The notes beneath the pieces were generated by a model that worked only from the letters and a program-made list of their open reading frames with translations, did no database searches and was not told where the DNA came from. A stretch of 64,000 bases of DNA from Octopus sinensis (lineage: Eukaryota). Location of the stretch: the NCBI RefSeq assembly GCF_006345805.1, contig NC_043001.1, positions 35,898,001 through 35,962,000 of the forward strand, read 5' to 3'. Both the position numbers and the translations under genes were made by a program. Positions 3,469 through 28,229 of this stretch are shown here, in pieces; within the stretch, counting starts at the first letter, position 1; the number at the start of each line of letters is the position of its first letter.

Positions 3469-3668
3469 GGGAGAGTTTACGAAAAAACAAAAAACGAAGA
3501 CAGGTGGTGTACAAAACAAACAGATGTATTAGTATAACGCTCAGGAATAGAAAAAGTCTTTTACGTTTCGAGCCTACGCTCCTCTACAGAAAGGGACACA
3601 GAAAAGAGAAACAAGGAGAGAAACAAGGAGAAAAAAATGTGTGTAGTGGCTAACGATCTATCATGGCG
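3469..3668 (-). mobile_element. Short Penelope-like terminal-repeat element (family C), copy 1, with hammerhead-like motif
   Basis: Reverse complement matches 14269-14480, 17613-17812 and 28097-28229. (TA)n lies on both sides. Carries CCTTT-CTGTAGAG-GAGC-GTAG-GCTC-GAAAC-GTA-AAAGA on the minus strand. Confidence 0.7.
3557..3594 (-). ncRNA. Minimal type I hammerhead-ribozyme-like motif (A6 to U variant)
   Basis: Stem I CUUU/AAAG, core CUG-UA-GA, stem II GAGC(GUAG)GCUC, then GAAAC-GUA. Stem III is the loop-less palindrome ACGU. Confidence 0.55.
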
Positions 3669-4101
3669 ATATATATATATATATAGTTGGATCCAATGGC
3701 AGTTGGTTCAACAGTCCTTCTTATCATGACATATTTTAATAGCACATCTTTGTGATTGCAGATCTGTATACTGACAGTCAATTATATGGCAACGATTTGA
3801 TCGTGAAAGTTGTCAGAAGCCATTTTATATACTTGTCGGAATATTGCATTGCTGATTTACTAAGTTACATTCTCCGCAGTTATGCAGGAGCAGATCACAA
3901 TTTCAGTTAACCTTTCCCGGATGTTTCCGTCTTTGCAAACCCTGCTAAACTAAACAACATGACTATCAAAAATAATTAACTTGCAACTCACCTTTAACTC
4001 TGGAAACATTGAAAAACATTACATCAATATTCTTCATGTTGGACAAAAGAAAACTTAGAAACAAACAGGAGGGTATCCGTACCTCATAGGTATCCGTACA
4101 A

Positions 4102-4332
4102 GGCGGCGAGCTGGCAGAACCGTTAGCACGTCGGACGAAATGCTTAGCGGTATTTCGCCTGCCATTACGTTCTGAGTTCAAATTCCGCCGAGGTCGACTT
4201 TGCCTTTCATCCTTTCGGGGTCGATAAATTAAGTACCAGTTACGCACTGGGGTCGATGTAATCGACTTAATCCATTTGTCTGTCCTTGTTTGTCCCCTCT
4301 GTGTTTAGCCCCTTGTGGGTAATAACGAAATA
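4102..4332 (+). mobile_element. tRNA-derived SINE family B (octopus-type), full length
   Basis: GGCGG...CCGCC acceptor-like stem, A box TGGCAGAACCG, B box GTTCAAATTCC, central GCCTTTCATCCTTTCGGGGTCGATAAATTAAGTACCAG. Flanking direct repeat ATAGGTATCCGTAC at 4086-4099 and 4330-4343. Near-identical copies at 49541 and 51936. Confidence 0.9.
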
Positions 4333-4803
4333 GGTATCCGTACCTCTTTTCGATTCTAATATATTTTACATTCTAACTTGATGAGGAAAAGATTTGTACG
4401 TAACATATTGAAGTGAGTTGGTCACTGTCCTGTGTAGATCCAATTTCAATGGTTGAGCATCCATTAAACTAGGTTCAAATATATTAATTGAGCTGCGATT
4501 CCTGAATCTTATTAGAAAGACATTCTCTTAGGCAACTTCAGTTAGAAATTTTTAGTTGGTGGAAACTGGTTTCGAAAAGGTCATATGTATGCTTGCGTCA
4601 TAAAATATTAGAAGTTCAACAGTGCAATTAAGATAGATCATGCAATGAATGCTAATTTAATAATTACCATAATTTCAGGTGTTTAATTAGATTATTGATA
4701 TTGCGAAGATTTAGCCATTTACTAACAAAAAGAACGCTCTTGGGGAAATTTTAAATGTTCGTATTCAAGCTACACTGAATAATTTTAATTACGATGTTAT
4801 ATA

Positions 4804-4875
4804 TGTGTGTGTGTGTGTAAGTGTGTGTGTGTGTGTGTGTGTGTGTGTGTGTTGTGTGTGTGTGTGTGTGTGTGT
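4804..4875. repeat. (TG)n microsatellite
   Basis: Read directly from the sequence. Confidence 0.95.
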
Positions 4876-6883
4876 TATATTCATAGATTTCTTAGCTTTT
4901 GATTCTCAGCCGATAATGAATAATAGGACACATGACATGTTTAAAAGAGATAAAAGAGAAATACCTGAATATGTAGACAACTTTTGATTGAGTAATAGTA
5001 ATAGATTAAAACTATCTTATTGGTGGTGCACAAAAGTGATTTCAAAATTATAAATAACAATTAAAGAATAGGTAAAACGAAGACACGGGATTTGAACTAA
5101 GCCTAAAAGTCTAACCCTTCCAGTCAAATGGGCACTTGGTTACCAACCCAGAAATTTCCAGGTCCCTGTAAGTGGATGTACAGTGTGTGTGCGTGTATGT
5201 GGGTATATATATATATATATATATATATATATATATATATTGTAAGGACAGAAATTACGTTAGGCTAAATTAACCCACCATTGCATATTTTTGATCACGC
5301 TAACGACTAGGACCCACTCAGCGGCATAAATTGCTAAAGGGGCAGCGTGTACAACTATATACTTCAGTAAACTATGATGATGATTTCTAGGAGCAAGAAG
5401 ACAAAGAGAAACCAAAGTATGAGGTGGAGTATTTTATTTTTGTTGGGTTTTTTTTTTCATGTTTTTTTTAACGATACTCTCCGACTCAACACTTGGTTTT
5501 ATTTTCCCTTGAAAACTCGAGTGAAGGTCAATAAATATGCATATCTATACATTCAATAAAGAATGTTATTCAACATCACTCATCCGAAAATCTTTTCCAA
5601 AATGGATAATCCGTTTAGATACAGTAATACGGTTGAGAGATTATGAATATAGGTTTTCGTAGTCGTAGACATAAAATTAATGAGAAAGACTGAAATAGTG
5701 AAAGAGAATATATTTTAAGCTTATTTACGCACTCTAAATAGCCATCACCATCAAAATTTACAATATAAAACGTACACAAGTAAATTAATAAATAACACAC
5801 GTTGTAAAAAGCTTACACATACATAAATGATATAAATGTATTTTTCTTAATCCCCTCTCAAAAGAAATGTGTAAGCCGAAAAATCTTTTCCTTCATTTCT
5901 TTCATTTAATTCAAATGTCAAGTATATTATTGTAAGATAAACATAAATGGCCGTTAGCAAATATACTAGCGCATGACTGACGCGTTGGTTTTGTTCTTGT
6001 TCTTGTTATTGTTGTCTACCTCTCAGATCATTATAATCGAGCAAGCCTAGCCTAAGATCAAATGCGTCTCAGTCGTGACCATTCCGTTTGTTTTAGAGAC
6101 ACAGACTTATGTTTGAGTACAGATGCACTGGATAATTGAGAATTGAATTCTCAACTCTGCAACTACGAAGAAATATCAGAAAAAGCAAAAAAAAGATTTG
6201 CTCCAAAACGTGACTGTCCATATTGTATCAATAACAAATAGCAGTTTCGGCGCCAAACTATTACTGAGTTACGATAAGTGGTCTAGAGTAACTTTTCTCT
6301 GTCGCAAAAGCATTTTATATATTTTCACTCCCGCTTTTGTGCGTTTTTTCTGTGTTTCTGCAATAACTTGCTTTTCAATTTTCTATATATTTGTCTATCC
6401 TCTCTTGGGCAACGCATAATACTAAAATATACAAGACTGCCGCAGTAAAAACAGTACAATATTTGTTTTCAATATGATAGATGGGAAATGAAATAATTGC
6501 CATATGTGTAGCATAAATCTAAACTCAGTAGCATATTAGTCTCTCAGTAATATAAACATGCAGCATTTGATCAATAATTCATTACATATGCATAACGCAT
6601 GCGTAATGTAAGGAACGTAAATATACAACGCATAAGACAAAAGCTTAACATACGTGTGTCGTAATGTGGCTTAATAGTAAAACACAGTCGAAATTATATT
6701 GATGAGTGGCAAGGATGGTTACCTGTTCTGCATAAATAATAGGACTTTCCTTTTCTTAATAGACGTTGCGACAAATGAGATGTGGAAGACGTATTTGTGA
6801 ACTTTGAATTCAAAACTGAATGTTTGTACAATCGAAATTAAGCCGAACACTGAATAGAAGTCTACTACTATGCTAAATGTATT

Positions 6884-25897: not shown

Positions 25898-26046
25898 ACT
25901 CTTTTACTTGCTTCGGTTATGTGACTGTGGCCATGCTGGAGCACCGCCTTTAAGTCGATCAAATCGACCCCAGGACTTATTCTTTGTAAGCCTAGTACTT
26001 ATTTTATCGGTGTCTTTTTTTGCCAAACCGCTAAGTTACGGGGACG
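25898..26046 (-). mobile_element. SINE family A, right half only
   Basis: CTTTTACTTG...GGCCATGCTGGAGCACCGCCTTT...CCGCTAAGTTACGGGGACG. Confidence 0.88.
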
Positions 26047-26654
26047 GTGCATATCCATATATATATATATATATATATATATATGAATATGCATACACAC
26101 ACAAGTCTACGCATATAAACAGGAAGGAAATATACAAATAGCACTACAATTTCGAGAAGTGATGTAAAAGATAGTGTAGGAAAAGGACTGCGTGAGGTAA
26201 GACAGAAATCTGTAAAAGAATGAGGATTTGAGTGGGTAAGCGAGTGAGTGAGAGACAGAGAGAGAGAGGGAGAGAGAGAGAGACAGACAGACAGACAGAG
26301 AGAAAGGAATTAAACGTTGAATGGGGATGGGGGATAAGAAAACGACAGCTGGTAAACTGTAGAGCAATGGCGACAACATGACAAGGGAGACGTCAGAATG
26401 AAGACGAGTTGTGAGGTGCCAAAGCTAAGATGTCTCCAGAAGAAATATGACAAGAAAGCCGTGGGGGTCACCTCAGAGTGAACACTCAAAAGAAAAGAGG
26501 GTCGAGACAAAGGAAATTCCAGCTCTGATAGATTTAATGGTCTTCTCGAACATAAAATGTTTTAGTGCTTATGTAACTCACATAGATGAACCGTTCACTC
26601 TTCACCGGACTTATATTTATATGCGCATGTGTGAGTGCATGCGAAGCATATATT

Positions 26655-27293
26655 CACACACACACACACACACACCACACATATATATATATATATATAT
26701 ATATTATATATATATATATATATATAATACATACATACATATATATAAAAATATATACATCCATATGTATATATATAACAACAAAATAATAAATAAAACA
26801 TATGCATATATACATACATATATGTACATACCTATATATATGGTTGTATACGTATACATATATATATATATATATATATATATATATATATAGATATATA
26901 TATATATATATAAATACATACATACATGTATGTGTATATTTATGTCTGTGTGTATGTATATATATGTATATGCATATATATATAGGTTGTATACGTATAC
27001 ATATATATATATATATATATATATTATATATACATACATATATATATATATGCATATACATATATATATACATACACACAGACATAAATATACACATACA
27101 TGTATGTATGTATTATATATATATATATATTATATATATATATATACATATATATATATATATATACCTATATATATATAAATATATTATAAATTATTAT
27201 ATATATATAAATATATTACATAAAAAATGTATATATATATATATATTTATATATATATATACACACACACACACATATATATACATATATATA
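26655..27293. repeat. (TA)n-rich compound microsatellite
   Basis: Read directly from the sequence. Confidence 0.9.
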
Positions 27294-28096
27294 GAGGGGG
27301 GTGTTTGCATGTATGAATCAGATACATGAGATAGTACATGTGTATCATTCTATGTGTGTGCTTGTGCATTTGTGGTAGCATGTGTTCATGTATGTGTATG
27401 TGGTTAGGTGTGCGTGTATGTCATATTGAGTATTTGTTAATTCCCGATTTGAGATTTACAAGAGACACGACCGCTATGTCACTTCCCATTCGCACCCATA
27501 GTTATGACTATATGCGTAGATATCTAGTTTCGAAGCGCTTAAACCAATACAGATACACGTCTGCGCCTTCATATGTGGCTTTACATGTGTACATAGATAT
27601 ATTTTTGTGTATGTGTGTCAGAGGGAGAGACAGAGAGAAGGAGAGAGAGAGAGACAGAGAATATGGTGTTTATGTGAGTGAATACCATTGTGTATTCATC
27701 CAATTGTTTACAAACACCATTGTAAATATGGTTTAGCACACATCATACTCATACTATGTAATATAATATATATATATATATATATATATATAAATTAGGA
27801 ATATGCATGCGAATACACATGTTTATACTGGTATGGTTATTTTAGATCCGAGGCAAATATTCAAACGGACACAATTACTCACGGACGCAATGCACAAAAT
27901 ACATTTTTCGCATACCATATACATACAAACACAAACACACACACACACACCCACACAACCACACACACACCACCACACACACACACACACACATATATAT
28001 ATATTAATATATATATATATATATATATATATATATATATTATTTATATATTAATATAATTACATACATACATACATACATAAATACATACATAAA

Positions 28097-28229
28097 TCTC
28101 TCTGTTTAAGAGCGTAGGCTCGAAACGTAAAGACTTTTTCACTTCCCGAGTGTTAAACTATTACATCTGTTTGTTGTCTACAGTGCATGTCTTCGTCTTT
28201 TGTTTTCGTTTGTGAATTCTCTCTCCCCC
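28097..28229 (+). mobile_element. Family C element, copy 4, truncated at the hammerhead-like motif
   Basis: TCTCT-CTGTTTAA-GAGC-GTAG-GCTC-GAAAC-GT-AAAGA...CTCTCCCC, followed by (TA)n. Confidence 0.7.

Follow-up and report, generated by a model that had tools for sequence, protein, structure and literature searches.

A hammerhead-type motif with U at core position 6 in the terminal repeats of a Penelope-like element of Octopus sinensis

Minimal type I hammerheads are described in the pseudo-long terminal repeats (pLTRs) of Penelope-like elements (PLEs), where their role is called unclear (PMC8557442, PMC4209133, PMC11167929). The hammerhead of a lizard PLE is reported to cleave solely in the presence of the PLE protein (PMC11167929). 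Natural changes of the hammerhead core are on record as an A6C variant with a kobs under 0.1 per min and a U4C change tolerated in a viroid (Perreault 2011, PMC3088659); the A6C form prefers Mn2+ (Naghdi 2020, PMC7151607), and cryptic mutant hammerheads in repeats were rejected from the lists of the former study. A 2026 octopus repeat annotation describes Penelope families as recently active and, in its accessible part, mentions neither hammerhead nor ribozyme. Here we describe four PLE copies in a window of 64,000 nucleotides of Octopus sinensis (NC_043001.1, positions 35,898,001 to 35,962,000), which carry a hammerhead-type motif with U in place of the conserved A6 throughout its family. Neither a U6 family nor an A6U change was found in the PLE, hammerhead and retrozyme literature as far as accessible, with supplements, repeat databases and Lunse et al. 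2017, reportedly the largest survey of PLE hammerhead variants, outside that scope.

The four copies are 5′-truncated 3′ ends of a Neptune-type PLE, and their positions in the window are as follows.

3469–3670, minus strand: copy 1, an about 200-bp PLE 3′ end of the A7/A17 subfamily, with the common boundary motif as its 5′ end
3558–3593, minus strand: hammerhead-type motif (stem I to stem I) in copy 1, with U6 at 3586 and cleavage predicted at 3562/3561
13687–14480, plus strand: copy 2, an about 790-bp 3′ untranslated region (UTR)/pLTR of the youngest subfamily, 93% identical to the full-length unit L097
14346–14381, plus strand: hammerhead-type motif of copy 2; C6 at 14353, predicted cut 14377/14378
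17605–17812, plus strand: copy 3, an about 205-bp PLE 3′ end of the C7/A17 subfamily
17679–17714, plus strand: hammerhead-type motif in copy 3, with U6 at 17686 and cleavage predicted at 17710/17711
28096–28229, plus strand: copy 4, an about 135-bp PLE 3′ end of an older subfamily
28098–28133, plus strand: copy 4 motif in decayed form, with U6 at 28105, U in place of G8 at 28107 and a disrupted stem I
14481–14540, strand not assigned: (TA)n microsatellite adjoining the 3′ end of copy 2, its target
about 3451–3468, 17813–17829 and 28230–28285: similar TA tracts after copies 1, 3 and 4

The original prediction had placed four copies here, sharing an identical 19-mer and each ending at (TA)n. The 19-mer was found by exact matching four times in the window (3563–3581 on the minus strand, 14358, 17691 and 28110) and not in any of 100 shuffles, all four copies were seen to terminate at (TA)n, and the cores read as predicted, CTG-TA-GA, CTG-CT-GA, CTG-TC-GA and CTG-TT-TA for copies 1 to 4. 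The predicted length of about 200 bp fits copies 1 and 3 but not copy 2, and the framing by stem I is seen in copies 1–3 but has been lost, together with G8, in copy 4. Because the family state is U6 and G8, C6 of copy 2 and U8 of copy 4 are most likely single-copy mutations. The window contains no credible coding gene, its 32 stop-free frames of at least 150 aa being mostly microsatellite readings. Rfam gave no match in the window or in L097; as canonical A6 minimal hammerhead copies used as a control were missed too, this blank is uninformative on A6.

The state of position 6 was monitored over the 2.72 Gb genome. The 19-mer has 16,347 exact matches against none for its reversed control, and position 6 was counted through a core pattern CTG-x-N-GA-R upstream of it. 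T stood at position 6 in 13,412 of the 13,894 cores thus found (96.5% U) and A in 142; the other 340 have C or G, with 88 C and 12 G among the first 100 of them listed. The genomic check that had been proposed for this position therefore upheld the family-wide absence of A6, and the state is specifically U6 and not just any pyrimidine. The 142 A6 copies include every N7 letter and several flank clusters and look like sporadic mutants; no A6-bearing subfamily was found, as they spread over all N7 classes and clusters. Copies were also selected solely through a flank motif lying downstream, which has 17,835 matches; of the first 100 listed, 90 were examined and 69 of these hold the whole motif, 66 with T, two with A and one with G at position 6. 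U6 is fixed in every sampled subfamily and present in both repeats of full-length units, and the family lacks the A6 of minimal type I hammerheads.

Long copies extend upstream into an open reading frame (ORF) with reverse transcriptase (RT), a CxxxxCxxC linker and a GIY-YIG endonuclease. The RT precedes the C-terminal GIY-YIG in a single ORF (a stop-free frame of 963 aa in L098), which was open from ATG in none of the six copies examined. RVT_1 passes the Pfam cut-off while GIY-YIG, with an E-value of 0.0028, falls short of it, its motif being still readable; the CX2-5CxxC linker and the CCHH residues of the endonuclease are legible in P0001. The full-length unit of about 4.5 kb has the order pLTR-ORF(RT+GIY-YIG)-pLTR with the motif in both repeats, thus bearing out the suggested link to Penelope-like parents encoding both domains. 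Such units with two motifs 4.4–4.5 kb apart were seen at 5 of 16 long-ORF loci, where nine of the ten motifs have U6 and one C6. The repeats of L097, about 800 bp each, are 96% alike and form partial-tandem pLTRs; the motif is in sense orientation, about 105 nt short of the repeat 3′ end and about 730 nt upstream of the ATG. ORF order, linker and CCHH residues, partial-tandem pLTRs and fixed 3′ ends with (TA)n targets agree with endonuclease-bearing PLEs of the Neptune/Nematis type, and the Neptune-type assignment follows the published description rather than an RT tree with named Neptune/Nematis references. The closest proteins elsewhere are mostly 53–59% identical (959 matches among 7,999 scored), the few named ones coming from molluscs, sea urchin and coral.

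A search for the endonuclease yielded 16,521 candidates at first look, and 150 of them were scored. The best 30 of these loci differ by a mean of 0.25% over 396 nt, a figure that marks a young burst and not the mean age, as they were selected for likeness; downstream of them U6 was present in 29, the core was deleted in one and A6 occurred in none. The PLE thus appears to have been recently active. Of the two origins offered by the original prediction, a Penelope terminal repeat or a retrozyme-like family, the former holds as the pLTR end of an autonomous PLE. A non-LTR retrozyme was rejected, since the copies are dispersed and contiguous with the parent ORF and do not form head-to-tail arrays of 170–400-nt units that have a canonical hammerhead and lack an ORF. 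Separately, local duplications with two motifs 380–660 bp apart were noticed at L064, L065, L066 and L051, which are candidate natural dimers or nascent retrozyme-like arrays.

The origin of U6 was approached through related families. The canonical minimal CUGANGA pattern has 12,791 genomic matches against 28 in the control, and 4,133 matches belong to sister families that share stem II with the U6 family and have a 3-nt loop, with A6 in 97 of the first 100 listed. A relaxed scan of 80 metagenome loci of related elements gave 11 matches, of which the eight with a C3-G8 core (two of them identical) all have A6, and the three with U3-A8 cores were excluded as doubtful, one having T6 inside an A-rich run. 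In a DNA tree of the 3′ part of the ORF (37 rows, L393 being left out as too short), the members of the U6 family group together as a single clade (100/100) and have the 3-nt-loop clade as their sister (100/98); the outgroups, which have A6, were flagged for long branches and composition bias. As sister families, metagenome relatives and tree outgroups keep A6, U6 is the derived state. An older U6 subfamily with a different loop II was not found, the 2,322 matches to such a pattern looking mostly like CpG decay in the first 100 listed. The motif is thus best described, from these comparisons, as a PLE terminal-repeat hammerhead by descent in which one defining core position has failed, and not as a canonical hammerhead.

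A second deviating lineage was reached via sister ORFs, with proteins 60–69% identical and the core CCGACGA, that is, U4C (L377, L380, L384, L386, L388, L399, L400, L404, L406 and L413–L442). The CCGACGA-type pattern has 7,687 matches, 97 of the first 100 listed falling in this lineage, which gives about 7,500 copies and exceeds the 4,133 matches of the CUG-core 3-nt-loop pattern. In the tree the U4C elements are nested inside CUGA elements (99/91), and two older single C4 copies lie outside the clade. Of the 46 U4C copies sampled, 31 have U and 15 have C at H17. U4C is a second change of the U-turn, fixed independently in a sister lineage. Long AC-rich 3′ UTRs were also observed in this lineage.

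The original prediction had asked whether the motif is more conserved than its flanks. To this end 165 copies were clustered by flanks alone, giving 9 (K = 10) or 11 (K = 14) clusters of at least four copies, with subfamilies up to 45% apart in flank columns. Between subfamilies 45–46 of 100 ungapped flank columns have changed against 0 of 34 motif columns when N7 and H17 are set aside (Fisher p 9e-8 and 4e-8 for K = 10 and K = 14), and 2 of 36 when they are included (p below 1e-5); the sample is partly motif-picked, the columns are not independent and the clusters are coarse. C3, U4 and G5, G8 and A9, G12, A13 and A14, and A15.1-U16.1 are unchanged in 9/9 and 11/11 clusters. N7 has changed 4–5 times to give all four bases and H17 three times among U, A and C only, as expected of a hammerhead in which N7 is free and H17 is not G. 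Genome-wide, position 17 is G or C in 144 copies (G in 50 of the first 100 listed, in all N7 classes), so that G17 occurs in about 70 scattered copies, and a G17 subfamily was not seen. Thus, the sole changed motif positions are those that hammerhead chemistry leaves free. G10.1-C11.1, the extra base after A9, the palindromic 15.1–16.1 and stems I and II are all present. Among 16 natural sequences, three of the four stem I pairs change on both sides between families (score 0.258, reached in 0/500 shuffles, a control that ignores relatedness), while stem II is 100% paired with no double change; the proposed covariation check was therefore positive for stem I but not for stem II. Loose ends in public contigs from four runs are most numerous at L097 3226–3227 and 3265–3266, which are the two ends of stem I. 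These patterns together suggest that selection on the motif has persisted after A6U.

The ends of the copies were then compared with the predicted cut. The 3′ ends are fixed, with a TA-type tract adjoining 58 of 60 counted copies. Among the 90 flank-picked copies there was no spike of 5′ ends at the predicted cut, where 10 start downstream of it and two start three bases before it (ends beyond about −113 are unreliable in this count), and cleavage as the event defining copy 5′ ends is unsupported for want of such a spike. All five two-motif units run through both predicted cut sites. Taken with the missing spike, this suggests that the templates of the copies were uncut or re-ligated. In 110 motif-bearing copies, 46 have their 5′ end 81–110 nt upstream of the cut, in many cases immediately beside TA repeats, and the numbers drop sharply further out, to 4, 2 and 1 in the following bins; this boundary accounts for the copy size of about 200 bp; a similar 5′ boundary was seen by eye in the U4C lineage. 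By analogy with the anole PLE, the about 200-bp class may represent run-off copies of an RNA starting 100–115 nt upstream of the cut in the 5′ repeat, a pause of the RT being the alternative.

The preferred boundary carries a conserved CGCCATG, from which, in several subfamilies, a frame of four codons runs to a TAG.

3660–3670, 14265–14290 and 17605–17632 of the window, and 3148–3170 of L097: CGCCATG boundary motif

The motif appears to resemble a YY1 site and may mark a transcription start. It was also observed that the junction of the 5′ repeat with the 5′ UTR is a short ATATATT (L097 3364–3372, and the same in L100, L102, L103 and L105); matching the TA target where copies end, it could give microhomology for priming.

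The reading to which we give about half of our confidence is that the motif is a pLTR minimal type I hammerhead with A6 changed to U in a recently active PLE, with cleavage that is likely slow and dependent on a dimer or a protein. The element RT would copy the RNA from about 105 nt downstream of the cut site and read through it, so nearly every new copy would need an uncut or re-ligated template, and a slow ribozyme would for this reason be tolerated or favoured. Read-through transcripts that were occasionally cleaved, to unit-length or circular RNA, would maintain selection on the catalytic positions, and the short copies would be run-offs of RNA starting in the 5′ repeat. The activity of the native U6 core is likely to be weak but retained, going by the natural A6C phage and U4C viroid cores, which keep low activity. 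Rescue of position 6 by A-to-I editing was rejected on reasoning, the genomic base being T.

Several points weigh against slow cleavage. A pairwise mutagenesis study found low activity, and no rescue, for every single mutant of CUGA (Roberts 2023), canonical minimal PLE hammerheads are already poor cleavers with low activity even as dimers (PMC4209133), and dead hammerhead mutants of the lizard PLE insert in vitro, with no RNA ends at the cut site (PMC11167929). The argument from never-G17 subfamilies is based on only 3–4 changes, and a mismatch in stem I of the youngest U4C subfamily suggests that constraint is relaxing in that branch. Furthermore, U6 is predicted to be able to pair with A15.1, closing an inactive rod that hides the ACGU palindrome; the probability of its G5-C15.2 pair is 0.96 in U6U7, the youngest subfamily, compared with 0.67 in U6A7, 0.23 in U6C7, 0.20 in U6G7 and 0.01–0.36 in natural A6 copies. 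According to these models the rod may damp the youngest subfamily, and it leaves the other subfamilies and U4C unexplained. That A6U and U4C both stabilise this same rod was rejected, as the G5-C15.2 probability is 0.01 in U4C copies. Canonical C7 copies are also predicted to hide the palindrome, in another register. The folding z-scores of the monomer are not significant, its stability being no greater than that of shuffles.

The strongest competitor of the slow ribozyme, which we consider possible but less probable, is a motif that does not cleave and acts as an RNA structure bound by the RT-endonuclease or a host factor for the choice of RNA or the positioning of the RT. Two sister lineages independently lost different U-turn nucleotides (A6U and U4C) and then amplified strongly, insertion in vitro does not need cleavage and hammerheads are missing from whole clades of PLEs (PMC11167929, PMC8557442), and N7 and H17 would likewise be free in an extended helix in which N7 faces A14 and H17 bulges out. 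However, the unpaired C3, G8, G12 and U16.1 and the avoidance of G at H17 stay as in active ribozymes, the rod that such a fold might form is weak in U6C7 and U6G7 and not favoured by U4C, and the binding region required in the lizard PLE lies within the first 172 nt of the ORF (PMC11167929). A conserved pLTR promoter or protein-binding site at the DNA level, with the hammerhead likeness as an ancestral relic, we regard as improbable. The pile-up of 5′ ends upstream of the cut (46/110) does suggest a nearby transcription start, PLE promoters are located in pLTRs (PMC8557442; Weinberg 2019), and both the lack of compensatory change in stem II and the unremarkable monomer folds would suit such a site, but the conserved island spans stem I to stem I with the loose ends at its two limits, stem I covaries, and the free positions are those of the ribozyme. 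Least probable of all is a dead A6U mutation that was carried along by a single master element, with no selection now acting on the motif: 55 of 100 flank columns likewise never changed in the partly motif-picked sample, but 34 adjacent unchanged motif columns against 45% flank change, subfamilies as far apart as given above and the same picture in the flank-picked sample largely refute it.

A wider proposal, put forward tentatively, would be that PLE hammerheads are selected for shape and damped catalysis, that the two lineages with an independently broken U-turn retained all remaining hammerhead features and became dominant, that the fold serves as a protein-gated or non-catalytic signal, and that many cryptic hammerheads escape CUGANGA searches. 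The canonical, A6U and U4C versions of a homologous motif in sister elements, in thousands of copies, amount to a natural experiment, and the near-identical young coding copies together with the 142 natural A6 revertants make the choice between cleavage, weak cleavage and fold testable. U6 may join the short list of natural hammerhead core variants, and the findings suggest that reports of PLEs without hammerheads can stem from strict core descriptors.

Other repeats were noticed during the analysis. The region spanning 13537–13660, adjoining copy 2, is a different TA-flanked repeat of about 130 bp whose relatives (L049, L132, L167, L324 and L429) contain CTGA(T/A)GA, a 3-bp hairpin and GAAT or GAAA with no clear stem I; it is possibly another PLE end with the hammerhead core alone. 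A third abundant family of canonical minimal hammerheads (L114, L116, L118, L120, L121 and others) has stem II GGCUG/CAGCC and a longer loop, and mostly lacks TA at its end. The window also contains copies of an abundant SINE-like repeat at about 12430, 19580, 30680, 52610, 61850 and 62940, and a tandem array of a 16-bp unit in about 27 overlapping copies at 23430–24015; ARAGORN found no tRNA in it.

Compared with known systems, the motif resembles the minimal PLE type I hammerheads of Cervera and de la Pena 2014 (PMC4209133) in its location within the pLTR, short stem I, additional nucleotide between 9 and 10.1, G10.1-C11.1, palindromic 15.2–16.2 without a stem III loop, and its occurrence mainly as single copies from truncated elements. 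U6 is its one departure from the features listed there. The core changes described there, as far as accessible, are solely a U3-A8 covariant, besides atypical helices, whereas here U6 is fixed across an active family. The parent resembles Neptune-clade PLEs (Craig et al. 2021, PMC8557442) in having one ORF with RT and then GIY-YIG, a CX2-5CxxC linker, partial-tandem pLTRs and (TA)n targets; those PLEs are described as carrying canonical hammerheads, whereas two of the dominant lineages of this genome are non-canonical. Natural loss of A6 with the remaining core intact is shared with the Bcep176 phage hammerhead (A6C; PMC3088659, PMC7151607), but that is a single phage ribozyme with a full stem III and C6 that was shown to be active, while the octopus motif is a minimal dimer-type fold in more than 13,000 copies, known here from sequence alone. 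As in non-LTR retrozymes (Cervera 2020, PMC7229834; Li et al. 2026 preprint), short non-coding type I hammerhead repeats are related to pLTRs, but unlike the retrozyme tandem arrays the copies are dispersed, have ragged 5′ ends and a fixed 3′ end, and are contiguous with the parent ORF. Finally, like the hammerhead of the green anole PAc (Poseidon) element (Frangieh 2024, PMC11167929), the motif would be passed uncut in reverse transcription, with an internal RT start near the repeat/ORF junction and AT-rich targets; the PAc core is canonical and overlaps the start codon, whereas the octopus motif lies far upstream of the ATG and has lost A6.

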